The notes beneath the pieces were generated by a model. It was given only the letters and a program-made list of their open reading frames with translations, was not told the DNA's origin and did no database searches. 64,000 nucleotides of DNA from a virus: IMG/VR virus record IMGVR_UViG_3300034073_002585, positions 64,001 to 128,000 of that record; one strand, written 5' to 3'. Position 1 is the first letter of the stretch; each line of letters starts with the position of its first letter. Below are positions 355-59,311 of the stretch, piece by piece. A program made the translations under genes and the position numbers.

Positions 355-410
355 AAGCCCCCACAGCCAAGTGCTTCCCCCAGTCTTGGTTCGTGGGGGT
401 TTCGTCTTTT
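355..410 (+). terminator. Intrinsic terminator with C-rich loop
   Basis: GCCCCCAC..AGCCAAG / CTTGGTT..GTGGGGGT stem followed by T-rich tail. Confidence 0.7.
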
Positions 411-552
411 GACCCAGACCATTTTTTGACTGAAGGTGTGTATTTATTTTTTGTTACGACTTTTGAAAAAAGACTTGTTTTGTTTGCGAAACCTAGTAGG
501 ATTGGAGTATCCAATCAGGGACGAAATAGAAGTAGTCCCAAAAAGGGGAGAG

Positions 553-891
553 ATGACGAAAGTCACCAAAGCCCAGCCAGTCGGCTCAAAGACTGACACG
601 AAGGTAACTCGTAAGTTCGTTACCAAACTCAACGAGTTCGTTGAGGTTCGTTCTCTACAAAACCTCTACAAGAAGTTGGCTGACGAGGGTCGTGCCGAAA
701 TCTTCAACGAGGTGGGGGAAGCCGAGCAGGTGCTAATCCACAATGGCGTTCGGGTTGCGATTATCAGTAAGGTAACCAAGCCCGACATTGACAAGAAACT
801 TCTCGCCGAGAAGTATCCAGAGGCTTTTGCCGCTTGCTCAATCACTCGTGACGAGTTCCACATCAAGACAGCAACTCCGACCAAGAGATAA
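553..891 (+). CDS. Hypothetical protein, paralog of 8109-8474
   Basis: SD AAAAGGGGAG before ATG 553; IDKKLLAEKYPEAFAAC resembles IDEEKLAKDFPEAYEAC of the paralog. Confidence 0.8.
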   Translation: MTKVTKAQPVGSKTDTKVTRKFVTKLNEFVEVRSLQNLYKKLADEGRAEIFNEVGEAEQVLIHNGVRVAIISKVTKPDIDKKLLAEKYPEAFAACSITRDEFHIKTATPTKR

Positions 892-895
892 CCAG

Positions 896-928
896 AGAGG
901 GGGTTGGGCGAAAGCCCAGCCCCTTTTC
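896..928 (+). terminator. Intrinsic terminator
   Basis: GGGGTTGGGC-GAAA-GCCCAGCCCC-TTTT. Confidence 0.8.
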
Positions 929-1040
929 TCAAAATGCCGTTGTATTTATTTTTTGTATGACTTTTGACTCGCCGAGGCGTGCCGTAGAAAATGTCAGAGG
1001 TTAGTAGTAAATTGGTAGTAACAAGAAAGGGGGTTCTCAA

Positions 1041-1382
1041 ATGAGAGAGCCAGTAGCACTAGACCCAGTAGGCGTGGCAGGACTTAGCCTCACCATGATT
1101 GGAGTTCTCGTTGAGCAGTATGTAAGAGAGGGTTACGCCGACCCAACCATGTATCGGGCATTGAAAGGGGCAGGCGAACTAGCGGAACACCTACGGGAGT
1201 GGGTTATGTCAGAAGCACCAGACGAAACGGAACTGCTTGACGGCGTGACCGACTTACTTATGAACCTAGAACTTACCGCTATGGAGTGTGGCGAGGTCGT
1301 AAACCGAATCATTGACGAACACGGCTTGCCTGTTGATAAAAAGTCGTGGACACGGCTTGACATTGACGGCACGCAGGACTAA
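1041..1382 (+). CDS. Hypothetical protein
   Basis: 113-aa ORF with SD AAAGGGGG. Confidence 0.8.
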   Translation: MREPVALDPVGVAGLSLTMIGVLVEQYVREGYADPTMYRALKGAGELAEHLREWVMSEAPDETELLDGVTDLLMNLELTAMECGEVVNRIIDEHGLPVDKKSWTRLDIDGTQD

Positions 1383-1392
1383 GGTGGTAGGT

Positions 1393-1686
1393 ATGAAGTT
1401 CTATCAAGCACTCGGCGAGGTAATCAGAGAGCAACGGCTTGCCAAAGAGATGACCCTTCGTGATGTAGCCCAGACGGGTTATGTTTCTATGGGACACCTG
1501 TCAGATGTGGAGTGTGGACGGAAAGAGGGTTCTTCCCAGTTCATTCACGCAGTTGCTAACGGCATAGGCATAGAGCCTCACGAACTAATTTTGAAGGCAG
1601 GTTTCAGAATGGCAGACCTGACCATTCCAGATACACCAGAAAAACTTTTATTGGGCGATTCGCAATTCGAGACAGCCAGACTCTAG
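1393..1686 (+). CDS. XRE-family HTH regulator, ClgR-like
   Basis: ALGEVIREQR..TLRDVA...VSMGHLSDVECGRKEGSS follows the actinobacterial ClgR pattern (TLREVS..VSLGYLSEVERGRKEASS). Confidence 0.8.
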   Translation: MKFYQALGEVIREQRLAKEMTLRDVAQTGYVSMGHLSDVECGRKEGSSQFIHAVANGIGIEPHELILKAGFRMADLTIPDTPEKLLLGDSQFETARL

Positions 1687-1702
1687 AAGTCTGAAACCCA
1701 AA

Positions 1703-1733
1703 GACCCTAGCGAGTGGAAACGCTAGGGTTTTT
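1703..1733 (+). terminator. Intrinsic terminator
   Basis: ACCCTAGCG...CGCTAGGGT-TTTT. Confidence 0.8.
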
Positions 1734-1873
1734 GCATTTCCAAATTTTCTTGTTTGGCGTGTATTTATTTTTTGTTTGGCTTCCAATCGCTTTTGATGAA
1801 AATGTCTGCCAATCCTGATAGAGTTTTCTTGTTGGGAGTTCCAAGTGTGAACTACAACAGAAAGGGGTAGCAG

Positions 1874-2221
1874 ATGAGCAAGTCTGCTTTTTTGATTCGA
1901 GAGGATTTTTCTTTCGAGCGTTTGGAGTTAGAGGGCAACACCTTGAAGGTGTTACAGAGTGCCGTTGATGGCTTGATTCAACCTGTTGATTTGAGCGACA
2001 GCCTGACTGTCTGGGTAAATGAAGAGGGGCTATTCAGAAATGATTTTGATGTGAACCTTTTTGCTACTGCTATTTATCACCAAGCATTTCCGACTGCGGA
2101 TAACCCACTTGTAGGCCCTGCCGTCTTTACAGGTGGTTCTGATGATGAGGGCAACACCCTCGGATTGAGCGAGCAGATGATTGCCAACCTAGCGACATGG
2201 GCTCTGGCTCTCGCCAAGTAA
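1874..2221 (+). CDS. DUF3846-like protein
   Basis: LQSAVDGLIQPV..VWVNEEG..N..AT..LVGPAVFTG..DEG.T.GL pattern. Confidence 0.7.
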   Translation: MSKSAFLIREDFSFERLELEGNTLKVLQSAVDGLIQPVDLSDSLTVWVNEEGLFRNDFDVNLFATAIYHQAFPTADNPLVGPAVFTGGSDDEGNTLGLSEQMIANLATWALALAK

Positions 2222-2235
2222 CACAGAGGTAAGAC

Positions 2236-2266
2236 TGCCCCCGCTTCGGCGGGGGTTTTCTTTTTT
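2236..2266 (+). terminator. Intrinsic terminator
   Basis: GCCCCCGC-TTCG-GCGGGGGT-TTTCTTTTTT. Confidence 0.85.
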
Positions 2267-2389
2267 CCGTTTTTTGTGCGGGTAGCGTGTATTTATTTTT
2301 TGTATGAAGTTTTTATGAAATGCCGACAATAAACTTGATAATGTCAGAGTGCCGTGCTTTACTAGAGGTATCCAAGAAAAGGAGAGGGA

Positions 2390-2632
2390 ATGTTCAGTAA
2401 CTATCCAGAGGGTTCAATGCGAGGCTCGGGTATCTATTCGGTTGAGGTGTCTTATGACGCTTTCGATTGCGAGAACGAGGAGTGCGGACAGCACAACGAG
2501 GCTGGCGATACTGCGACTGATGACTGGGGACACTACACGATTGAGTGCGAGTTCTGCGGAGTGACCTACACAGAGAGCAGTCTGGCACAGGACAAAGATG
2601 ATTACTACGCCGACTATTCCGAGGACAGGTAG
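2390..2632 (+). CDS. Acidic Zn-ribbon-like hypothetical protein
   Basis: SD AAGGAGAGG; CENEEC...CEFC. Confidence 0.75.
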   Translation: MFSNYPEGSMRGSGIYSVEVSYDAFDCENEECGQHNEAGDTATDDWGHYTIECEFCGVTYTESSLAQDKDDYYADYSEDR

Positions 2633-2640
2633 GGGCTAAA

Positions 2641-2781
2641 ATGGCAACGCAATACGAATACGAATGTCGCTCTTGTGGAAGTGCGGTTTGGCTAGACCAA
2701 GAACAGCACGACCACTACGAGAGCAACAAAGAAAAGGGAAGCGGGTTCACAATGCCAAAGTGCGCCGACTGCTGGAAATAG
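2641..2781 (+). CDS. 46-aa Zn-ribbon protein (not in ORF track)
   Basis: MATQYEYECRSCG...PKCADCWK*; SD AGGTAGGGG upstream; fills the gap between neighbours. Confidence 0.7.
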   Translation: MATQYEYECRSCGSAVWLDQEQHDHYESNKEKGSGFTMPKCADCWK

Positions 2782-2792
2782 GGAGAGGAAAA

Positions 2793-2993
2793 ATGACAAC
2801 AACGACCCGCTACTGCTGGAACTGCGAGGAAGAACTAAACGCCGAGAACACAGGTTCTTATGGTGGGTTCGATTCAAGCAACCACTACTATTCAAGTATC
2901 TATGGCGGAGATGGCGACACAGCGCCGTTCACAAAGTGCGACTCTTGTTTTGATGCCGACAACGACAGATATCTAGAGAGCCTTTACGAGTAG
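2793..2993 (+). CDS. 66-aa Zn-ribbon protein
   Basis: SD GGGAGAGGA; CWNC...CDSC. Confidence 0.7.
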   Translation: MTTTTRYCWNCEEELNAENTGSYGGFDSSNHYYSSIYGGDGDTAPFTKCDSCFDADNDRYLESLYE

Positions 2994-3137
2994 GCAATAC
3001 CAAAGATTTACTGCCCAATAATTCTGTGCGGGACACAGAGTTGGGCAGTTTTTTATTGCCGATTTTTGGCGACTATTTTTTGTTCTTCGAGTGTATTTAT
3101 TTTTTGTTCCAGGCTGCCGAAACTTTTTACTAATGAT

Positions 3138-3166
3138 TTGACTTCGCCGACCAAACCTAGTATCTT
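3138..3166 (+). promoter_or_regulatory. sigmaA-type promoter
   Basis: TTGACT-17 bp-TATCTT, about 30 bp after the box at 3092. Confidence 0.6.
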
Positions 3167-3206
3167 TGTAAGTGTCAGAAAGACACAGAGTGAAAGGAAT
3201 CCAGAA

Positions 3207-3476
3207 ATGGAAACGACAAAAGAAGTAATCAAGGCTAGACTCATGGAGATTGAGGAGCGCCAAAAAGAACTGGCACAGAGTCGCCGAGAGATGGCACTAG
3301 ACATGGCTGTTGAAGTTGGGACAGACGAGCTAGTTGGTATCAACCTTGACTCACTATCAAAGTGGGCAAGAAGAATTAGGAAAGTCAATACAGAGATGAA
3401 AGTTTTGGCAGACGAGCGCCGTTGGTTGAGAGAGAGCAGACGCCGACTCAACCCTTGCGAGTGCGACTGCCACTAA
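3207..3476 (+). CDS. Coiled-coil hypothetical protein
   Basis: SD GAAAGGA, ATG 3207; heptad-like charged sequence. Confidence 0.75.
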   Translation: METTKEVIKARLMEIEERQKELAQSRREMALDMAVEVGTDELVGINLDSLSKWARRIRKVNTEMKVLADERRWLRESRRRLNPCECDCH

Positions 3477-3490
3477 GGTTAGTCCCCCCT

Positions 3491-3534
3491 AACCCCCGCC
3501 CCCGTCAGAGAAATCTGGCGGGGGTTTTCTTTTT
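3491..3534 (+). terminator. Intrinsic terminator
   Basis: CCCCCGTCAGA-GAAA-TCTGGCGGGGG-TTTTCTTTTT. Confidence 0.85.
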
Positions 3535-3672
3535 GTCGTTCGTTGAATTTTTCATTGAGAGCTGTACAAAAAATAAATACAAGTAGGTAGCACAATAATT
3601 TTTGCTGCCGTGTTTCTTTTGTTTTTCTTCTTTTTACTGCTATACTTGATGTAATCAAGAAAGGGGGACACA

Positions 3673-3972
3673 ATGTCCACAAGCACCACCACCGCCCGCA
3701 ACGAGTTTCTTTCCGCCGTATGCGAGCCACTACGCACCATCACTAGCGAGAACCTCACCAAGAGCGCATGGGTAGCTGGAGTTGAAATCATTGCTCTGGC
3801 AAATCGCCTTGCCGACCTTGAGGTTTCCGTAGAGCTTCTAGAGAACGAAATCAAGCTAGGCAACCTCCACTTCGCCGTTGATGGTCACAACTGGAGCGAC
3901 TACGCAAAGGTTTACAACAACAACTTTGTGGAACTGTGCCAGTTGCTACGAGCAAGAAGGCTTGCTAAGTAG
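3673..3972 (+). CDS. Hypothetical protein
   Basis: SD AAAGGGGG; extended -10 TGCTATACT upstream. Confidence 0.75.
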   Translation: MSTSTTTARNEFLSAVCEPLRTITSENLTKSAWVAGVEIIALANRLADLEVSVELLENEIKLGNLHFAVDGHNWSDYAKVYNNNFVELCQLLRARRLAK

Positions 3973-3987
3973 TATCCAAAACACCAA

Positions 3988-4017
3988 GCCCCCTGTTTCG
4001 GCAGGGGGTTTCTTTTT
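3988..4017 (+). terminator. Intrinsic terminator
   Basis: GCCCCCTG-TTTCGG-CAGGGGGT-TTCTTTT. Confidence 0.8.
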
Positions 4018-4151
4018 GCCGTGACGAGAAAGTCTCCCTCTTTCTGTGTGTATTTATTTTTTGTCCAGGACTTCAACATGCCGACAACTTTTTGTCAAAA
4101 TGTCTCTTATGGGTGCTATGCTCTAAGTAACCAAAGAAAGGGGACAACCAA

Positions 4152-4328
4152 ATGGTTGGAGTAGGGCAGCTACTAAGTAGCTTGAATTTGAATGTGATTG
4201 CGAGCGCCGTAGAAGGCGAGACAACAGTTCCTTGGACTCTTTTGTTAGAAGATGAGGAATTCCTAAAGATAGCAAAATACGCCAACACCTTACAAGAGGT
4301 TGTTGACTGGGTAAACGAGAACTACTAG
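4152..4328 (+). CDS. 58-aa hypothetical protein (not in ORF track)
   Basis: SD AAAGGGGA then MVGVGQLLSSL...DWVNENY*. Confidence 0.7.
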   Translation: MVGVGQLLSSLNLNVIASAVEGETTVPWTLLLEDEEFLKIAKYANTLQEVVDWVNENY

Positions 4329-4335
4329 GGGGTGA

Positions 4336-4539
4336 ATGATGAGCGTAAAGTATCCAGAGATTGAAGTTCAACTTTCGGGAAATGATGGAAATGCTTATGC
4401 GATTATGGGGGCGATACAGAAAGCCCTACGCCGAGCAGAGGTTCCACAACACGAAATTGAGCAATACCTAAACCAATCCATGAGCGGAGACTATGACAAC
4501 CTTTTGCGGGTTGCCATGAATTGGGTGACAGTTCACTAA
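4336..4539 (+). CDS. Conserved small phage protein (GNAYAIMG...SGDYDNLL family)
   Basis: L.G.DGNA..I.G....AL...SGDYD.LL motif familiar from phage/plasmid small proteins; function unknown. Confidence 0.75.
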   Translation: MMSVKYPEIEVQLSGNDGNAYAIMGAIQKALRRAEVPQHEIEQYLNQSMSGDYDNLLRVAMNWVTVH

Positions 4540-4552
4540 TCAAACCAAAGAC

Positions 4553-4586
4553 AAACCCTCGCAAAGTTGCGGGGGTTTTTCTTTTT
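4553..4586 (+). terminator. Intrinsic terminator
   Basis: AAACCCTCGCAA..TTGCGGGGGTTT-TTCTTTTT. Confidence 0.8.
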
Positions 4587-4704
4587 CCCGTGATAATTTC
4601 GGCGCTCGCCGTATGTATTTATTTTTTGTCTAGCTCATCAGCAACAGATTTGCGGTTTATGTGTGTGCCGTGTTAGGGTATGAGTATCAAGAAAGGAGTT
4701 CCCT

Positions 4705-5091
4705 ATGGGAGCAAGAACAGTTTGGGAGATTCGGACTTATTCCGACAGGCCCTCTATTTATCTATACAGCCACTGGGGTGGCGACACTAAGTGGATTGAC
4801 ACAGTTCAAGCCTTAGAGCAAGCTAGATTCCGCTGGGATGACCCGAGTTATGGAGCAAGGATTTTCATTAGCCAGATTGTTGGAAGCCAATGGGACCTAG
4901 AAACAGGATTCGGTATCACTGCTGGAGATTCTGGAGAAGTTCCATTCGAGGAGAGCTATTTCAATGCGGTAATAGATTTCTCATCAAAGACAGTGACCCT
5001 AGGAGAGCACCTATACACTTTCGAGGAGTTTGTGTCCGCCGATGACATTACTGAACAGCTTGGCAATGAGTTCTGGGAGGTTAGCGCCTAA
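4705..5091 (+). CDS. Hypothetical protein (IYLYSHWGG motif)
   Basis: SD AAGGAG; MGxR...YxHWxG N-terminal motif. Confidence 0.75.
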   Translation: MGARTVWEIRTYSDRPSIYLYSHWGGDTKWIDTVQALEQARFRWDDPSYGARIFISQIVGSQWDLETGFGITAGDSGEVPFEESYFNAVIDFSSKTVTLGEHLYTFEEFVSADDITEQLGNEFWEVSA

Positions 5092-5375
5092 TGGGTAATC
5101 TACAAGCTCAAGAAATGGCGGCGCTCACTGACCTTGACATAGCGCTAACTTGGCACCTGCGGTCGAACCACTATCCACCCGTGCCGTTGACAATGCTTGA
5201 ACCATGTAAACAAGCGATTGACGCTTACTGGGAAGATGACCTAGATAGGCAGATTGACTTGAATGGAAGTTTCTACAGGGGCGAACCTTTTGCCCCTGCT
5301 AGAGAGATTATTATCGCTCATCACCTAGACGCTTGGTGTGAGGGCGAGGAAGAGGAGTTCGACGATGCCGATTAA
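5091..5375 (+). CDS. Hypothetical protein (WHLRSNHYPPVP motif)
   Basis: Translationally coupled (TAATG) 94-aa ORF. Confidence 0.75.
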   Translation: MGNLQAQEMAALTDLDIALTWHLRSNHYPPVPLTMLEPCKQAIDAYWEDDLDRQIDLNGSFYRGEPFAPAREIIIAHHLDAWCEGEEEEFDDAD

Positions 5376-5763
5376 GGATAAGGAGAAATACAATGCTTAC
5401 ATGCGGGAATACAACAACAGAACCTATGCCCTTAGGTGTGACAAGTTCCGAGCCCAATTAGGCAACAAGTGCACAAAGTGCGAGAGCACAGATAGCCTAA
5501 ATTTCAGTGGCACCACCCCGCTAGGTAAGTCTTTTGATTTGTCGCGCCGAATGACTAGTGCACCAATGAAAGACTTGCAAGAGCTTTTTGACAACAGCAA
5601 CTACACGCTATTGTGCAACAAGTGCCTAGCAAAGCAAACCAAAGGCGTAGAGCATGGAGGAGGTATTTCTGGCGTGCGGAATTGTAAGTGCGATTTGTGT
5701 AAAGCTAAGAAAGCCGAATACATGCGGAGCTACATGAAGAAGAAACGAGCTACAATAGACTAG
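5365..5763 (+). CDS. HNH-like Zn-binding protein, probably catalytically degenerate
   Basis: LGNKCTKC...LLCNKC...HG..SG..NCKCDLC layout of actinophage HNH proteins. Confidence 0.65.
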   Translation: MPIKDKEKYNAYMREYNNRTYALRCDKFRAQLGNKCTKCESTDSLNFSGTTPLGKSFDLSRRMTSAPMKDLQELFDNSNYTLLCNKCLAKQTKGVEHGGGISGVRNCKCDLCKAKKAEYMRSYMKKKRATID

Positions 5764-5786
5764 CCAAAGCAATGTCGCTTGGCTAT

Positions 5787-5870
5787 TGCTAGAGATTTTG
5801 TCCCCCCTTTCTCTCTAGCATGCGGGTTACAACTTTCCCCCCTTTAGTTGTAACCCGCTTTTTCTTTTTT
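5787..5870 (+). ncRNA. 6C-RNA-like tandem hairpins with C6 loops; the second hairpin doubles as terminator
   Basis: TGCTAGAGA[TTTTGTCCCCCCTTTC]TCTCTAGCA then GCGGGTTACAACT[TTCCCCCCTTT]AGTTGTAACCCGC + T tract. Confidence 0.5.
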
Positions 5871-5944
5871 GTCGCCTGCTTTTTCTCTTCCGTTGAGTGT
5901 ATTTATTTTTTGTTCAACTTTAGCCACGCCGTCAAATAAAGTGC

Positions 5945-5972
5945 TTGACTAATTTGACAGGACTGGTAGGCT
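5945..5972 (+). promoter_or_regulatory. sigmaA-type promoter
   Basis: TTGACT-16 bp-TAGGCT; the following TATTACATCAGCCAA is shared with the promoter at 7422. Confidence 0.65.
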
Positions 5973-6014
5973 TATTACATCAGCCAAAAGGTTGGTAAAA
6001 GGAAAGGGGACAAA

Positions 6015-6230
6015 ATGTTCACACTAAGAAGGTTCGCAGGTGCAGTAATCACCATGCCAATCGTGTTCGGTATCTATGCGGTTATCTACTTTGGTCTAGG
6101 TCTAGTAGCAAACAGCTACATGAGTATTGGACTATTCACCCAAAACCTATACGCCGTTGGATTCGGCTGGGTGATTGCGGTTACATTCGCTAAGCAGTTC
6201 TTCAACCTAATCGAAAAGCTAGGAGAGTAA
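6015..6230 (+). CDS. Small membrane protein (2 TM)
   Basis: Two hydrophobic segments; SD AAAGGGGA. Confidence 0.75.
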   Translation: MFTLRRFAGAVITMPIVFGIYAVIYFGLGLVANSYMSIGLFTQNLYAVGFGWVIAVTFAKQFFNLIEKLGE

Positions 6231-6232
6231 TA

Positions 6233-6385
6233 ATGGAAAACATCATTGAAGCAGTGCTACTAATCGGAGTAGCGTTCATTCCAGTAGGAGCGTTCTTGCT
6301 AGGGTTCGTAGTCGCCAAGATTTCTAATGGTGGTGGTAACCCGAAGGGTCGTCACGCCAAAGGTCGTGGCAGACACGCCAAGTAA
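6233..6385 (+). CDS. 50-aa membrane protein with basic GRHAK-repeat tail (not in ORF track)
   Basis: SD AGGAG; MENIIEAVLLIGVAF...GRHAKGRGRHAK*. Confidence 0.7.
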   Translation: MENIIEAVLLIGVAFIPVGAFLLGFVVAKISNGGGNPKGRHAKGRGRHAK

Positions 6386-6394
6386 GTTCCACCG

Positions 6395-6430
6395 AAGCCC
6401 CTCGCAGAAATGTGGGGGGTTTCTTTTTTT
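6395..6430 (+). terminator. Intrinsic terminator
   Basis: AAGCCCCTCGCA-GAAA-TGTGGGGGGTTT-CTTTTTTT. Confidence 0.8.
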
Positions 6431-6566
6431 GCGGGCAGCCTCTTATTTTTTTGTTTTTAGGTTGTATTTATTTTTTGTCTAACTTCAGACACACCTGCCG
6501 ACTTGATTTGCGATTACGGGTAGGAGGCTCTAAGCTATTACTAAGAACAAACAGGGAGGGGCAGAA

Positions 6567-6815
6567 ATGCTAAACAGACCAGACCAAGAGGCAGAGCTAA
6601 TCTTCGCTATGGTGATGAAGCTAGGCGGAGAGCACAACTACTCAGAGCACACCAAGGCTACGATTTGGGCAGAGTGTAATCGTAACCCTAAGCTACGCAA
6701 CCTAGCGTTGCAGTATCTAGCTGGGTCAAGCAACAGGGCAGACCTAAACCTGCACCGACTACACACCGAAATTGTGGAAGTATTCTTCCCTGAAGTAAAG
6801 GAGTTGATTGGCTAA
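6567..6815 (+). CDS. Hypothetical protein
   Basis: SD GGGAGGGG; promoter TTGCGA-17-TAAGCT at 6508-6536. Confidence 0.75.
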   Translation: MLNRPDQEAELIFAMVMKLGGEHNYSEHTKATIWAECNRNPKLRNLALQYLAGSSNRADLNLHRLHTEIVEVFFPEVKELIG

Positions 6816-6961
6816 TGGCTATCACGATTACAGAACTTACGACTTGCTACCAATGCGAGCGACCAATTATGGCACCGAAAGATTCAGTTCACCCGCTATG
6901 CGAAATTTGTGACCAGGGTTTTGACGAGTGGTTCACTAAGCAGTTAGGTATGTTCAAGTGA
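6815..6961 (+). CDS. 48-aa Zn-ribbon protein (not in ORF track)
   Basis: Coupled TAATG start; CYQC...CEIC; ends in GTGA overlap with next gene. Confidence 0.7.
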   Translation: MAITITELTTCYQCERPIMAPKDSVHPLCEICDQGFDEWFTKQLGMFK

Positions 6962-7272
6962 TTGAGTTTGAGCAGAAGTATTCAACGCCGAGAGCACAAA
7001 GGCAGTATGAGCTTGAAACTCTAATCAAGCACTATGAAGTTGAGCGTGCCGAGAACATTAGGCGACTATTGTTTTCGATTGGAGTTGGTTTTGCTTATGT
7101 TCTACTTATGGGAGGAGTTATAGGTTATGGAACTTTTGCTGGAGGCTATGCCGTATTAGGTTGGCTGTCAGTAATTACAGTTGGGCTATTCATAGCTGGC
7201 GAGTTTGTGAAAGTCAATGCCGAGCTTAGTCGCCCAAACCTCAACCACCCAGAAAGATTTATACAGAGTTAG
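6958..7272 (+). CDS. Membrane protein (2 TM)
   Basis: Two hydrophobic helices. Confidence 0.7.
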   Translation: MIEFEQKYSTPRAQRQYELETLIKHYEVERAENIRRLLFSIGVGFAYVLLMGGVIGYGTFAGGYAVLGWLSVITVGLFIAGEFVKVNAELSRPNLNHPERFIQS

Positions 7273-7294
7273 TCCCCCCTAACACCCCCCCACG

Positions 7295-7338
7295 CCCCCG
7301 CTAGGTTTCTGAACCTTTCCTAGCGGGGGTTTTCTTTT
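7295..7338 (+). terminator. Intrinsic terminator
   Basis: GCCCCCGCTAGG...CCTAGCGGGGGT-TTTCTTTT. Confidence 0.85.
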
Positions 7339-7421
7339 ACCTCGAAAGCACCTCGAATTTTTTTGCGGGAGGGTGTATTTATTTTTTGTCTAGTTGTTGC
7401 CGACACGATTGGTAAAAGGAT

Positions 7422-7449
7422 TTGACAAATCTAAATAAGGTGCTAGGCT
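7422..7449 (+). promoter_or_regulatory. sigmaA-type promoter with extended -10
   Basis: TTGACA-16 bp (ending TGC)-TAGGCT. Confidence 0.7.
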
Positions 7450-7494
7450 TATTACATCAGCCAAGGTGGTTGATACAAAGAAAAGGGGTAAAAA

Positions 7495-7791
7495 GTGAAC
7501 AGCAGGACTTACGAGAACATTCAGGGGATTGGAAGCTGGGTAGCTTTCCTAGCTACTGGAGTGGCTTTCCCATTCAGCTTGGAGTATGCGGGATTGATTG
7601 ACGCAATGAGCGCAGACCTATACACCGAGGGTAGGGCGATGATGTTCCTAATCATTGTGGTCAGCATTTCAATTCTGGCAGTAACCCTAGCGGTCAAGGC
7701 TGGACTATCTTGGGCAGAATACAAGTGGTATTACCGCCAAGACCTAGCACAGAAGCTACACCGCCTAGCAGACAGGATTGCCAAGCGATGA
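7495..7791 (+). CDS. Membrane protein
   Basis: SD AAAAGGGG, GTG start, 2 hydrophobic segments. Confidence 0.7.
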   Translation: MNSRTYENIQGIGSWVAFLATGVAFPFSLEYAGLIDAMSADLYTEGRAMMFLIIVVSISILAVTLAVKAGLSWAEYKWYYRQDLAQKLHRLADRIAKR

Positions 7792-7898
7792 AGCAACTAG
7801 CCAAGAGGGTTGAACCCTTGGTGCTGGAAGTTCTGGCAGTTGTCGTCTTGCCGAGGATTGCTGGAGCAGTAGCCAAGAGGTTAGCCAAAACTAAATAA
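7788..7898 (+). CDS. 36-aa hypothetical peptide
   Basis: ATGA overlap with previous gene; ends just before terminator. Confidence 0.5.
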   Translation: MKQLAKRVEPLVLEVLAVVVLPRIAGAVAKRLAKTK

Positions 7899-7907
7899 GA
7901 AGTGAGG

Positions 7908-7939
7908 AAGCCCCCGCCAAGTGCGGGGGTTTTTCTTTT
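7908..7939 (+). terminator. Intrinsic terminator
   Basis: AAGCCCCCGC-CAAGT-GCGGGGGTTT-TTCTTTT. Confidence 0.8.
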
Positions 7940-8016
7940 GCTTGCCGTTGTGATTTTTGCTGTTGTTGGGTGTATTTATTTTTTGTTCAAACTTTCAACA
8001 CGATTTTGAAATAGAT

Positions 8017-8045
8017 TTGACAACTACTAATCCACCCCCTAGACT
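8017..8045 (+). promoter_or_regulatory. sigmaA-type promoter
   Basis: TTGACA-17 bp-TAGACT. Confidence 0.75.
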
Positions 8046-8108
8046 GATTACATCAGTTCAGAAGTAGAGCTGATAACCGAAACTAGATAACTACAAAGGG
8101 GAGACGAA

Positions 8109-8474
8109 ATGTCCACAATTACTAAAGCAGTAGCAAAGGCTGAGCAGGCACAGGTTGCCGAAGGCAAAGCCACCAAGCGAATCGTAGATGCGGTCAAGGA
8201 GCTAGTAGAGCTTAGGGCTGAAATCGCAGAGCTTGAGAAGCGTAAGAACTCACTTACCGCAGAGCTAGAGCAGGTGTTCGGTGTAGACAAAGAAGCCAAG
8301 ACTTCAAAGCACACCACACTTACCTACCACGGTGTAGATGTTGTTCGCTACGAATGGCGCAAGCGTAAAGGGATTGACGAGGAGAAACTAGCCAAGGACT
8401 TCCCAGAAGCTTACGAAGCTTGCTACAAGGCAGACAAGACCGTATACGGCTTGATAGTGTCACTGTTCAAGTAA
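8109..8474 (+). CDS. Hypothetical coiled-coil protein, paralog of 553-891
   Basis: SD AAAGGGGAG; shared C-terminal IDxxxLAxxxPEAxxAC. Confidence 0.8.
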   Translation: MSTITKAVAKAEQAQVAEGKATKRIVDAVKELVELRAEIAELEKRKNSLTAELEQVFGVDKEAKTSKHTTLTYHGVDVVRYEWRKRKGIDEEKLAKDFPEAYEACYKADKTVYGLIVSLFK

Positions 8475-8481
8475 ACCGAAA

Positions 8482-8513
8482 GACCCCTAGTCAGAAATGG
8501 CTAGGGGTTTTTT
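8482..8513 (+). terminator. Intrinsic terminator
   Basis: ACCCCTAGTCA-GAAA-TGGCTAGGGGT-TTTTT. Confidence 0.85.
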
Positions 8514-9243
8514 CATTTCTGGCACAGTGCCGTAGTTAGTTAGAGGCTATACAAAAAATAAATACAGGTATGCCGTTCGAGTATTCTGCCGTGATTGCTC
8601 ATTGAGTCAGGTGAAGTTGTTATGCCGTAGATGGTTATACCCCCATAGCCCTAACCATTGAGGGGGGTGTAGCTGTCCCCTACAAGCCTTAGAGCCCGTA
8701 GCAGACCCACTCCCCAGACATAAGTAGGGCAAAGTCTCTAACCCACCACCTAAGTCTGTCTGCCGTAAAGCTGATAAATGCCCCTAAGAAGTCATAGAAG
8801 CTCTTTAAAGGGCATTGGCACTCTTATCTATGTCCCAGACAGGTAAAAGCTTTCTAGGAGCAACCTAGACCCTTATAGCTACAACTTATGAACTCACTCT
8901 TATTCGATGTCATAGCTAGACCTTGACTAGAAGCATTAGCTAGTTGTCTAGGCACTCTTTGACAGGTTTTTTCAATACCCCCTAGACAAGACAAGGAGTT
9001 TGTCACGACATTCTTGGCAGGCATACCCCCTAGGGTATGGAAACAATCTGGAAGGCACCATTTCACAACCGCTGCCCTCTCACCCGCCAAAAGCAGTCAA
9101 CGCTAAGGTACTAAATCTTCCGCTACGGACACCCCCTCTTTTTTGAAAAACTACCCCACCCCCCTTTCTAAAATGCCCTAAAAATTTCCAAAAATTTTTT
9201 AAAAAAATAAACGCCCCTATTTTTACCCCTTAAAATAGAATCC

Positions 9244-9741
9244 ATGTCTCGAAGAACAGCACGTGGACAACAGCTTCCTCCTCACGAGGTCGAGCTCTTG
9301 AACACACTAAAAGGCGAGCAGCGCATTGAGCGCGTAGCGGCGTTATTTAACGCGGGATGGTCACTTCAGACCATTGGGGATTCACTACTGCCAAAGCACC
9401 CACGCTCCACTGTACGCTCTTGGGTTCTTCGAGCTAGCGGGCTCAACACACTAGACGCCCCTATTCCAACACCAAAATTAAAAACACCAGAAGGCGGATA
9501 CCAAAAGGTAAAACCCGAGTCTCCAGGAATCCCGCAAGGCGACCTTGAGCAAATCCGCTACCTGGCTCCTCTGGCGAGAACGTACCGTTCACGTATGTCC
9601 TCAACGTCAGCATACGCCGTTGCCAACCAGCGTCTAACCGACCTGTGCAAGCGGCTCCATGAAAATAATGTCTCAGTGCGTGAACTGGCTGAGGCTGCGG
9701 GCGTAACATACCGAGCTATGTACAAGAGGCTCTTCCTCTAG
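9244..9741 (+). CDS. Double HTH DNA-binding protein
   Basis: AGWSLQTIG..RSTVRSW and VSVRELAEAAGVTYRAMYKRL; probably leaderless (TAAAAT 7 nt upstream of ATG). Confidence 0.75.
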   Translation: MSRRTARGQQLPPHEVELLNTLKGEQRIERVAALFNAGWSLQTIGDSLLPKHPRSTVRSWVLRASGLNTLDAPIPTPKLKTPEGGYQKVKPESPGIPQGDLEQIRYLAPLARTYRSRMSSTSAYAVANQRLTDLCKRLHENNVSVRELAEAAGVTYRAMYKRLFL

Positions 9742-11361: not shown

Positions 11362-11940
11362 ATGACAACCGACGATAAGAAATACATCAAGAAGAATCAG
11401 CAGCTTCCTACAGAGATAAAGCTCGAGTTTGACAAACTCTCTGGGAATAATGCCATGAGAGATATCCTGATTAAGAATCTAGTTGACGCTAACTGGACTT
11501 ACGAGGCAATCTCAAATGCGAGTGGACTCACTAGAGAGCGAGTTCGTCAGATTGCAAATGCTGTAGAGCGTCTGGCAGACGAGTTTCAGTATGACTTAAA
11601 TATTGAAATTCCAGAGCCGCCAGTTAAGCCTGAAAGGCCTAAAGCGCAGTACGTGGAGCCAAGTCCAGAGACTCTCAAGCGCCTACTGGAACTTCAGCCT
11701 TACGCTCAGCTAGTTAGAGCAAATGGACAGAAGTATCGCAAAGAGGCAGAAGAATACACCGCTCTGCTTAACCACGCTCACACGGTTGAGGGAGTTACCC
11801 TCTACCGACTAGCTAAGCGTCTAGGAGTTACCCACGGTGCTCTACGCTTCAGACTTGTACGTTACGGTTACAAGAAACCAGTTACTGCAACCAGTAAGGT
11901 CTACCAACCAATCATCAAAGACAACAGAGTGACGAACTAA
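11362..11940 (+). CDS. Double HTH DNA-binding protein, paralog of 9244-9741
   Basis: NWTYEAISNASGLTRERVRQI (sigma region-4-like HTH) and VTLYRLAKRLGVTHGALRFRL. Confidence 0.8.
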   Translation: MTTDDKKYIKKNQQLPTEIKLEFDKLSGNNAMRDILIKNLVDANWTYEAISNASGLTRERVRQIANAVERLADEFQYDLNIEIPEPPVKPERPKAQYVEPSPETLKRLLELQPYAQLVRANGQKYRKEAEEYTALLNHAHTVEGVTLYRLAKRLGVTHGALRFRLVRYGYKKPVTATSKVYQPIIKDNRVTN

Positions 11941-15400: not shown

Positions 15401-15472
15401 TCCTCTCTAGCTCAATGGCAGAGCAACGAGCTGTTAACTCGTCGGTTCGTGGTTCGAATCCACGGAGGGGAG
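15401..15472 (+). tRNA. tRNA-Asn (GTT)
   Basis: Acceptor TCCTCTC/GAGGGGA, D arm GCTCAATGGCAGAGC, anticodon arm ACGAG-CTGTTAA-CTCGT, T arm CGTGG-TTCGAAT-CCACG; CCA not encoded. Confidence 0.95.
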
Positions 15473-56241: not shown

Positions 56242-56262
56242 ACTACTTAATTAGGGAAAATA

Positions 56263-57273
56263 ATGAAAATACTTTTTACTGGCATGGGAACTCACCACTG
56301 CAAAAAGCCAGAAAACGCTAGTTTCTTTTCGCTTTTGTCTGACATGGTAGAAAATTTTTCCCAGGTGGAGTGGAAGTCTCCTGACGTAACGTGGACTAGA
56401 GAGTATCTAGAATCCTACGATGCGATTATATTTGGCATGCTACCTCCAACCGCCCTGAGCGCAAATAAACTATATGGCGGATTAAATGTATTAGGTTTGA
56501 TGTTTGACTCGCCTAAACTAAAGCTAGTAGTAGATAGCCCACAAATTTGGCAATACAAAAACAGTATCTCGGCTGTTGCAAAAGATTATGGGTATTTGTT
56601 AAATAACGCTTATAATAAAAAAGAAGGATACCAGTACGCAAAAAATAACGAGTATATAGTGTCTCGTGCCTGTGCTCATATGTTGGTTTCCGAATGGCCC
56701 AAAATTCTATATCCGTCTTTGCCTTGGAACTCAGACAACAGGGTAGCTCAGGCTTTAAGATTTGTAGACTCTTCAAGCCTCGTTGGACTAAATCTTGACT
56801 CTAAATTAATTTTGCCAGAACCTACGAGGATAGGGAGAGAGGACTACTGGTCAGTAGAAAACCACAAAAATAGTTGGGTTGACTACATATCTAAGTCTAT
56901 GTCTTTCCCTATGAAGGCAACAAAGTCTGGAAAAAAGACAGACGATTTGTATGCAGCCGAGACTATAGAAAATGGAGTCGGGCTTATTGTACCGCCTCAG
57001 GAAAGAAACATGATTACATGGTGGAACTATAGACTAGTTCAAGCCATGAACACCAGTACCCCCGTAGTGACATATTGGACAGATACCAAGGACTTTGACG
57101 CCTCCTGGGCATCACTGGCGTATCAAGTAGAAGATATGTCAGCAGTAAAAAGACAGACACTTGCTTCTAGACAACGCGAGGTCTACTTGGAAAACATAGA
57201 CAGAGAAGAATTTGTAGTCGAAAAGCTACAAAATATTCTGCTAGACTCTAAAAAGGAGAGAAATTATGCCTGA
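56263..57273 (+). CDS. Putative GT-B-fold glycosyltransferase-like protein
   Basis: MKILFTGM N-terminus; GLIVPP..WWNYRLVQAMNTSTPVVT resembles the GT-B C-terminal motif. Confidence 0.5.
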   Translation: MKILFTGMGTHHCKKPENASFFSLLSDMVENFSQVEWKSPDVTWTREYLESYDAIIFGMLPPTALSANKLYGGLNVLGLMFDSPKLKLVVDSPQIWQYKNSISAVAKDYGYLLNNAYNKKEGYQYAKNNEYIVSRACAHMLVSEWPKILYPSLPWNSDNRVAQALRFVDSSSLVGLNLDSKLILPEPTRIGREDYWSVENHKNSWVDYISKSMSFPMKATKSGKKTDDLYAAETIENGVGLIVPPQERNMITWWNYRLVQAMNTSTPVVTYWTDTKDFDASWASLAYQVEDMSAVKRQTLASRQREVYLENIDREEFVVEKLQNILLDSKKERNYA

Positions 57274-58869: not shown

Positions 58870-59311
58870 TAGTCCAGACTGGCACGAAGATGCCGAGTGC
58901 GGTAAGGTCGAGCATGCCGACAAAATGGATAACTTTTTTGCAAATAAGCCTTCTCAGCAATGGGAAGCAAAAAAACTATGTAATGTCTGCCCAGTAAGAA
59001 AAGATTGCATTAAGTGGGCACTAGATAATAAGCAGCTCTGGGGTATTTGGGGTGGACTTGATTCCCGGCAGATTAGAAATACCCTCTCAGTTAACTGGGA
59101 CGGTCAAGAGATGCGTTATAAGAGATTCCCGCTCTGCCCTAACTGCAGAGCAAAAACAGATAAACTAAAAACAGCGGTTGTTGATAGACCAGACGGCGGC
59201 AGATGGGCAACTATGCGTATAGTTGGCTGTACCGAGTGTCACTTTACTTGGCAGAGCCGAACCAGTGCAAATGCGGTAGATGCCTATCACGCACAGAAAG
59301 ATAAAAACTAG
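58859..59311 (+). CDS. whiB: WhiB-family transcription factor with C-terminal Zn ribbon
   Basis: W...AEC..FF..AKKLCNVCPVRKDC..WAL...GIWGG; then CPNC...CTEC; TTG start after GGAGG. Confidence 0.9.
   Translation: MFVNSPDWHEDAECGKVEHADKMDNFFANKPSQQWEAKKLCNVCPVRKDCIKWALDNKQLWGIWGGLDSRQIRNTLSVNWDGQEMRYKRFPLCPNCRAKTDKLKTAVVDRPDGGRWATMRIVGCTECHFTWQSRTSANAVDAYHAQKDKN

Follow-up and report, generated by a model that had tools for sequence, protein, structure and literature searches.

We analysed a stretch of virus DNA 64,000 nucleotides long (hereafter the window), which covers positions 64001-128000 of the 154,192-bp IMG/VR record IMGVR_UViG_3300034073_002585, a record with direct terminal repeats. 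Genes lie on the plus strand throughout ~50-122 kb of this genome. Small genes of unknown function lead into an array of short gene cassettes, interrupted by an AAA_5 ATPase and a 651-aa protein, and between the cassettes stands one and the same 16-bp word, TGTATTTATTTTTTGT (the box), which is the subject of this report. The array is followed by two conserved double helix-turn-helix (HTH) proteins and an NlpC/P60 protein, and further 3' by terminase, portal, capsid and tail genes and then by a family A DNA polymerase, an SNF2 helicase and a PD-(D/E)XK nuclease. Positions are those of the window unless marked as genome positions.

An invariant 16-bp box between small operons

We observed 13 exact copies of the box within 439-8566 (Table 1), spaced 474-1284 bp apart, where 0.09 are expected by chance and where 13 were reached in none of 100 shuffles; the window has no additional site at up to 2 mismatches. 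An earlier reading, made from the sequence alone (the sequence-only reading), had given the same count and spacing and no copy past 8566, and our recount returned these figures. It had also placed the array in the first 8.6 kb, which is right for the window copies; the array itself starts 5' of the window, with three more exact copies at genome 59300, 59727 and 60430 (window -4700, -4273 and -3570). The whole genome thus has 16 exact copies in one 13-kb region (genome 59300-72566). Apart from a one-mismatch copy at genome 56714-56729 (window -7286), inside open reading frame (ORF) 56250-57104, where it encodes the peptide DVIIFC, the rest of the 154,192-bp genome contained no further copy at up to 2 mismatches. 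A related phage with the same box, G001, has a 15/16 match at the same codons, and phages with other boxes encode a DVIIFC-like peptide by different codons. Searching IMG/VR for the exact 16-mer gave only single chance matches among the matches listed.

A G+C-rich hairpin with a T-run precedes every in-window copy. All copies but the last are followed by a TTGACA-like hexamer, a 16-18-nt spacer, TAnnnT, a GGGG-type Shine-Dalgarno sequence and one to three small ORFs. The description of the locus in the sequence-only reading, as self-contained units of terminator, promoter and small genes, was borne out here, and most of the products have no family match. At genome 59300 the box stands immediately next to a stop codon, without a terminator.

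The box is asymmetric, without dyad symmetry, and 14 of the 16 genome copies (11 of the 13 in the window) are oriented with transcription; the two reverse-complement copies, which the sequence-only reading had not noted, are at 3566-3581 and 8551-8566. The former occupies the usual slot between terminator and promoter and is followed by a plus-strand gene, and no minus-strand gene is headed by an inverted box. The presence of inverted copies in the same slot fits a site acting at the level of DNA and not an RNA element or a promoter. The terminal copy at 8551 is followed by neither a promoter nor a gene in either direction. The array of G001 is likewise closed by an inverted copy, with one mismatch, and the last box of another related locus (L214) is also inverted.

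Next, we considered how far the conservation extends. The per-column information profile consists of 16 invariant columns, with essentially random flanks (promoter and terminator included), in agreement with the earlier description of an invariant 16-mer with diverging surroundings. Four relatives show an equally sharp profile, the number of invariant columns ranging from 14 to 19 across the five genomes, and no partner motif at a fixed spacing from the box was found in the profile. Because the invariant columns are bounded by random flanks, this profile is the signature of a putative recognition site and not of a duplicated segment.

Table 1. Box copies and gene cassettes of the array (window coordinates; promoters are given as hexamer-spacer-hexamer)
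Feature	Position	Strand	Contents	Basis
Box copy 1 (4th exact in genome)	439..454	+	follows hairpin + T-run ~357-412	exact match
Cassette 1	455..940	+	TTGTTT(475)-16-TAGGAT(497); ORF 553-891 (112 aa); terminator ~899-930	sequence
Box copy 2	941..956	+		exact match
Cassette 2	957..1759	+	TTGACT(964)-17-GAAAAT; ORFs 1041-1382 (113 aa), 1393-1686 (97 aa); terminator ~1704-1735
Box copy 3	1760..1775	+		exact match
Cassette 3	1776..2287	+	ORF 1874-2221 (115 aa, DUF3846); terminator 2237-2256
Box copy 4	2288..2303	+		exact match
Cassette 4	2304..3091	+	Cys-rich mini-ORFs 2390-2632, 2641-2781, 2793-2993; terminator ~3012-3050	no Pfam match
Box copy 5	3092..3107	+		exact match
Cassette 5	3108..3565	+	TTGACT(3138)-17-TATCTT; ORF 3207-3476 (89 aa); terminator 3498-3525
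Box copy 6, inverted	3566..3581	-		exact match
Cassette 6	3582..4048	+	TTGTTT-16-TATACT; ORF 3673-3972 (99 aa); terminator 3986-4011
Box copy 7	4049..4064	+		exact match
Cassette 7	4065..4613	+	ORFs 4152-4328, 4339-4539; terminator 4553-4578
Box copy 8	4614..4629	+		exact match
Cassette 8	4630..5897	+	ORFs 4705-5091, 5091-5375, 5365-5763; double hairpin ~5790-5875
Box copy 9	5898..5913	+		exact match
Cassette 9	5914..6462	+	TTGACT(5945)-17-TAGGCT; ORFs 6015-6230, 6233-6385; terminator 6394-6423
Box copy 10	6463..6478	+		exact match
Cassette 10	6479..7373	+	ORFs 6567-6815, 6815-6961 (zinc ribbon), 6958-7272; terminator ~7295-7340
Box copy 11	7374..7389	+		exact match
Cassette 11	7390..7970	+	TTGACA(7423)-17-TAGGCT; ORFs 7495-7791, 7788-7898; terminator 7906-7934
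Box copy 12	7971..7986	+		exact match
Cassette 12	7987..8550	+	TTGACA(8017)-17-TAGACT; ORF 8109-8474 (121 aa); terminator ~8483-8515
Terminal inverted box, closing the array	8551..8566	-		exact match

Each lineage has its own allele of the box

Relatives were collected as 31 viral and 28 metagenome loci (L numbers below; whole records have G numbers, this phage being G000), anchored on the AAA ATPase and the 651-aa protein. In many of them the layout of terminator, box and promoter is kept and the word itself is replaced by another, equally invariant one, so that at least nine alleles can be distinguished (Table 2). Their common plan is a GTAT-like start, 3-4 variable bases, a run of T5-6 and 2 variable bases. 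Well-covered genomes or loci have 9-22 copies; in the five whole records (G000-G004) there are 16-22, nearly all gene-oriented and all within one 15-20 kb region. The slot behind a conserved hairpin 5' of the ATPase operon is occupied each time by the lineage's own allele. More distant relatives lack an invariant word. We also noted a tandem pair of type D boxes at L146:5718-5760, both inverted and separated by 25 nt, followed in their own orientation by TTGCGA-17-TATACT but by no ORF; this may represent a small antisense or non-coding transcript.

Table 2. Alleles of the box and where they occur
Allele	Word	Occurrence
A	TGTATTTATTTTTTGT	this phage, G001, L206
B	TAGTTATTTTTTCT	15 loci, e.g. 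L129, L130, L195, L196, L203
C	GTATCCACTTTTTTAC	16 loci, e.g. L131, L134, L137, L200
D	TGTATTCGTTTTTTCC	L146, L158
E	ATTTTTCATTTTTTCCA	L154, L157
F	GTTCCGACTTTTTCATTAGTAAG	L191
G	CGTTTTCACTTTT	L192, L217; 2 copies also in L207
H	GTATTTATTTTTTCT	L214
I	GTATTCATTTTTTCT	L135

Box type does not follow the ancestry of the neighbouring DNA

We compared box type with a quick maximum-likelihood tree of the 651-aa protein, the gene of which is adjacent to the array. Alleles A, B, C and G were polyphyletic on this tree (for A, 3 changes for 3 rows), and several well-supported sister pairs had different boxes.

L135 and L137 have 6.2 kb in common at 93.5% identity (96-98% in most 200-nt windows). At two intergenic positions in synteny, L135 has an I box where L137 has a C box, and the 10-25 nt that come after the box are exchanged as well, with the upstream terminator and the downstream core promoter staying nearly identical at both. 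Between L200 (type C) and L206 (type A), the coding DNA of the cassettes is 89-95% identical and permuted in order, whereas box and promoter differ; homology starts at the -10 hexamer or the start codon and extends through the terminator wherever the sequence reaches that far. The L135 contig, which is mosaic over most of its length when compared with G002, has a mixed array (L135:7912-13790; G005:49232-55106), in which three I boxes are followed by one C box. This array could be a genuine recombinant, or else two strains were joined in a chimeric metagenome assembly.

By these comparisons, genes together with conserved flanks flow between lineages, and boxes stay uniform within each genome. 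Uniform boxes despite gene flow require selection through something that reads the word; the box is under strong selection.

The box is phased with the predicted promoter that follows it

For 162 predicted promoters from 25 sources, we measured how far the -35 hexamer lies from the end of the T-run. The distances had a main peak at 28-32 nt (42% of the predicted promoters) and side peaks at ~9, 22, 40 and 60 nt, and the vector strength at a 10-nt period was 0.40, compared with at most 0.21 in the ten shuffled controls shown. In G001 alone, the distances from the box end to the predicted -35 hexamer were 20, 20, 29, 29, 30, 30, 30, 40, 40 and 40, a pattern to which a rough post-hoc binomial estimate assigns a probability on the order of 1e-5. 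The spacing of terminator and box, in contrast, is broad (11-48 nt). Since the distance to the -35 hexamer is phased and that to the terminator is loose, the box would belong to the promoter after it and lie on a fixed face of the helix. Relative to the predicted promoters its centre is at ~-72, with minor classes at ~-62, ~-82 and about -50. It does not have the make-up of an UP element, a degenerate A/T tract at -40 to -60 for the alpha C-terminal domain: the main class spans ~-79 to -64 and its word is invariant and lineage-specific, unlike such an element. A separate AAAAAG tract often abuts the -35 hexamer.

Two further motifs were observed. A second, looser motif, (G)ACACGCC(G) or TGCCGAC, often followed by AAAAAG directly 5' of the -35 hexamer, lies between box and -35 hexamer in many cassettes with several box types (spacers of window 455-8100; also L147, L129, L130, L131, L154 and L157). 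GCCGAC occurs in 5 of 14 spacers compared with 0.12 expected, CGCCGT in 7 of 14 (G001) and GACACG in 9 of 19 (G004). This motif may be the site of a conserved regulator. In a subclass of promoters, AATGTC directly follows the -35-like hexamer on its 3' side, e.g. TTGATAATGTC and TTGTCAAAATGTC; these promoters are at window 984-1000, 1793-1810, 2335-2350 and 4089-4105, at genome 59335-59350, and also in relatives with other boxes.

The box as a probable docking site of a regulator

We consider, with a probability of roughly 0.55, that the box is the docking site of a sequence-specific factor which sits near -72 and controls a whole early regulon. A docking site is preferred to a recombination site because the word stands ~30 bases 5' of nearly every early-type promoter and each lineage has its own version of it. 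The factor, probably phage-encoded, would bind on one face of the helix ~30 bp 5' of each -35 hexamer, would have early-type sigmaA/sigma-70-like promoters as its targets, and would switch ~16 small operons on or off together. The lineage's own allele would make this regulon private to the lineage; genes and flanks would recombine freely between lineages, and selection would hold every box to the allele of its own genome. What the DNA shows directly is that the word is invariant and sharp-edged, comes in alleles, is replaced in synteny and is spaced in a pattern; protein binding to the box, activation or repression, and early expression of the region are inferred. The sequence-only reading had proposed an operator as one role of the box; a putative protein recognition site agrees with its sharp edges, its lineage-specific alleles and their syntenic replacement in near-identical DNA.

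Several points weigh against such a factor. The promoters and transcription starts are predicted and not mapped, many of the counted promoters come from related genomes and are not independent of each other, and the promoter scan, which finds 162 sites in the real spacers, also calls ~110 in shuffled ones. Early activation, before phage proteins are present, would require a factor supplied by the host or the virion. Most operator sets are less strict than 16 copies without a single mismatch, and the mixed array of L135, if its contig is not chimeric, sits uneasily with a strict single-factor model. Finally, no ORF in genome 49-77 kb had box-A-specific residues across the three A-type genomes, and none of the HTH proteins examined tracks box type.

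The HTH proteins named earlier as candidate readers (those starting at 1393, 9244 and 11362) did not hold up in this role. The XRE protein (1393-1686) does not track box type, and the double-HTH proteins (9244-9741 and 11362-11940) keep the same recognition helices whether the phage has box A, C or E. The latter two are related to each other and have two HTH motifs each, one of them sigma-70 region 4-like. Because their recognition helices are identical across these boxes, they probably read a conserved site instead of the box; they are candidate middle/late regulators or candidate readers of the ACACGCC-type motif. Tracking of box type was also not seen for a double HTH_17 protein (genome 57935-58477), an 87-aa HTH protein (genome 53907), an 88-aa HTH-like protein (genome 127758), a membrane protein (genome 49605) and a Cys-rich protein (genome 52778). 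The last of these (genome 52778-53317; L128:3778-4317) is a conserved protein of 179 aa with CxC, CxxC and H clusters of zinc-binding appearance and without a family match, and it is present even in relatives that lack a box. In Pfam, the only matches among further genes that this phage has in common with G001 alone were to a Macro domain and an M23 peptidase.

A more far-reaching version of the docking site, which we put forward only tentatively, is a private barcode. A factor made by the phage or delivered by its virion would read no word but that of its own lineage and give this lineage exclusive control of its early regulon in mixed infections. Diversifying selection between competing phages, a kind of transcriptional immunity in a virulent phage, would then maintain the divergence islands of box plus 10-25 nt in genomes between which DNA is otherwise freely exchanged.

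Among other explanations, the one that survives best is that the box serves a host factor (a nucleoid or activator protein), or is an intrinsic bend (a phased T6 tract), as an upstream enhancer; we regard it as unlikely. It would provide strong early transcription before phage proteins are made, which suits early promoters that must fire without new phage proteins as well as the failure to find a phage binder, and the alleles would then mirror different hosts. Yet contigs with accession prefixes that look like those of one data set differ in allele (F and G under JACCDV; B and C under JACCEA), and DNA that is 89-95% identical between phages with different boxes indicates a common gene pool and probably common hosts. 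The T5-6 run common to all alleles, and phasing at ~-62/-72/-82 as in class I activators and phased bends, are consistent with this explanation, but a generic bend or UP-like element needs no 14-24 invariant, lineage-specific bases. In addition, the 23-nt F box (one allele only) was not found in 185,579 prokaryote genomes of GTDB. A phage-encoded reader is favoured because alleles differ within apparent data sets and because DNA is near-identical across boxes.

A stoperator-like roadblock or insulator appears improbable. Here a protein bound 3' of the terminator would stop read-through and insulate the cassettes, in keeping with the terminator before each in-window box, with the orientation of 14 of the 16 copies along transcription, as in stoperators (PMC6550527), and with the last box of the array, which has no promoter behind it. 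Such a role is at odds with the loose terminator distance and the phased -35 distance, and with the copy at genome 59300, which adjoins a stop codon and has no terminator; nor was a repressor gene tracking the box found (genome 49-77 kb and the HTH proteins), or a tyrosine integrase.

We give similarly little credence to a recombination module of the promoter-early stem-loop (PeSL) type, in which the box would offer short homology for the gain, loss and shuffling of cassettes. The sequence-only reading had asked whether relatives differ in cassette content or order, and both do: this phage and G001 have their cassettes in different order, and the relatives are mosaic in gene content. It had also suggested that the box is the site of this shuffling, and here the breakpoints speak otherwise. 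In nine close or cross-type comparisons they fell at the -10 hexamer or start codon, after terminators, or in the spacer between terminator and box, some of them in the hypervariable spacer that separates the 651-aa gene and its terminator from the first box. A cassette indel flanked by boxes was seen in a single clean case, one extra cassette in L137 compared with L136, and several contigs from other samples diverge just past the terminator or the box, although these are short and therefore weak evidence. The runs covered were one source-like subsurface run, another of that subsurface study and two from freshwater. A recombination-site role is poorly supported because breakpoints lie at gene starts and after terminators, and the box cannot supply the homology where cassette genes move between arrays with different boxes. 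Moreover, the box is an island of divergence in near-identical DNA, the opposite of a common crossover site. Homologous exchange would find very little to act on in 16 bp, and conservation does not extend into the promoter and terminator on either side. The box may act occasionally as microhomology; it is not the general point of exchange. We note that the hypervariable spacer mentioned above varies even between genomes that are 98-99% identical, with CCAGAC repeats in type B phages (L129:9440-9530, L190:2680-2732, L211:11463-11593 and L204:7823-7909).

It is very improbable that the box is a promoter of a phage-specific RNA polymerase or sigma factor with transcription starting at or just after it: near-perfect invariance and lineage dialects are typical of T7-type promoters, but the large proteins gave no RNA polymerase match in Pfam or PHROGs, a sigma region 2 was not detected either, two copies are inverted and one of these (3566) precedes a plus-strand gene, against strict orientation, each box is followed at a phased distance by a good predicted sigma-70-type promoter, and it has no partner motif at fixed spacing.

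Gene content of the array and its surroundings

The cassette products are mostly orphans in Pfam. Besides the DUF3846 protein of Table 1, they include one XRE-type HTH protein (ORF 1393-1686, with HTH_31/HTH_3 matches), zinc-ribbon-like peptides and small membrane proteins. The ORFs of cassettes 1 and 12 (553-891 and 8109-8474) are paralogues, and both weakly match the C-terminal part of a RecE-like exonuclease (phrog_434, E 1e-5 to 1e-6). The terminator of cassette 8 consists of two adjacent hairpins with C-rich loops (TCCCCCCTTT) that have no match in Rfam. Otherwise, Rfam gave only a tRNA at 15401-15472 and a sub-threshold twister match. Between the terminal inverted box and the first double-HTH gene lie ~680 bp (8567-9243) without a convincing ORF or Rfam match, which could be a middle promoter region or an origin.

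Megablast of the array region against GenBank phages gave no match; elsewhere in the window the only match was a 261-bp capsid stretch of Actinomycetia phage DSL-LC01. Two WhiB-like genes (genome 11604-11813 and 122880-123071, the latter at window 58880-59071) point to an actinobacterial host. The longer WhiB-like gene has a conserved Cys-rich C-terminal extension. The phage looks virulent, because neither a cognate repressor nor an integrase was found.

Comparison with known systems and significance

In function, the closest match to the boxes is the operator/stoperator set of Cluster A mycobacteriophages (L5, Bxb1, Trixie), a match that fails on location and on the missing repressor. Those sites are asymmetric, 13-16 bp long, present in 16-30 copies and mostly in one direction; they are read by a monomeric two-domain repressor, with which lineage variants co-evolve (PMC6550527, PMC9283540). 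The boxes are likewise asymmetric, many-copy, oriented with transcription and represented by graded lineage-specific variants. However, Cluster A sites are spread over the genome, mostly away from promoters, and block elongation, whereas the boxes are confined to one early-type region, 5' of predicted promoters in helical register and not within transcribed DNA. The copies of the box are also exact and do not vary around a consensus, and box type does not go along with the phylogeny of the genes next to it. Neither genome 49-77 kb nor the HTH proteins yielded a cognate repressor that co-varies with the box.

PeSL cassettes of T4-type phages have a conserved composite of promoter and terminator that is the exchange point (PMC2839356, PMC4122927). 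They resemble the present array in that small, variable genes without a known function are separated by a terminator and an early promoter, with content and order varying among relatives. In the present array, by contrast, conservation is limited to a separate word of 16 bp; each cassette has a promoter and terminator of its own sequence, and most breakpoints lie away from the word.

The predicted box centres, ~-62/-72/-82, one helical turn apart and 5' of a sigma-70-type promoter, are placed like class I activator sites. CRP binds at -61.5, -71.5 or -82.5, and Fis site I of rrnB P1 is at -71. These are sites of host regulons with a palindromic or degenerate sequence, whereas the box is asymmetric, invariant and specific to a phage lineage. 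For Streptomyces phage phiC31, Ingham et al. are said to have described in 1994 conserved inverted repeat operators that are intergenic in the early region, by early promoters. Those are inverted repeats of a temperate phage with a known repressor, and the box is not an inverted repeat. The host-takeover module of Bacillus phage SPO1 consists of dense small early operons, each with a strong promoter and a terminator, and in its series of small operons with their own promoter and terminator it is like the present array; we know of no invariant upstream word with lineage-specific alleles in that module. The unusual features of the present array are its exact copies, an allele series decoupled from phylogeny, and tiny islands of divergence at the box.

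If the docking-site reading is true, a single word would control ~16 operons of host-takeover type in widespread large actinophages of freshwater and the subsurface, and the alleles, at least nine in number, would be a natural experiment in the joint change of specificity of a regulator and all its sites. The alleles, the near-identical pairs and the 10-bp spacing classes are ready-made test constructs, and the factor, once found, would lead to orthogonal promoter-control parts for Actinobacteria. The shuffling of genes in these arrays does not depend on the conserved word, which limits the reach of the PeSL model in this group of phages.

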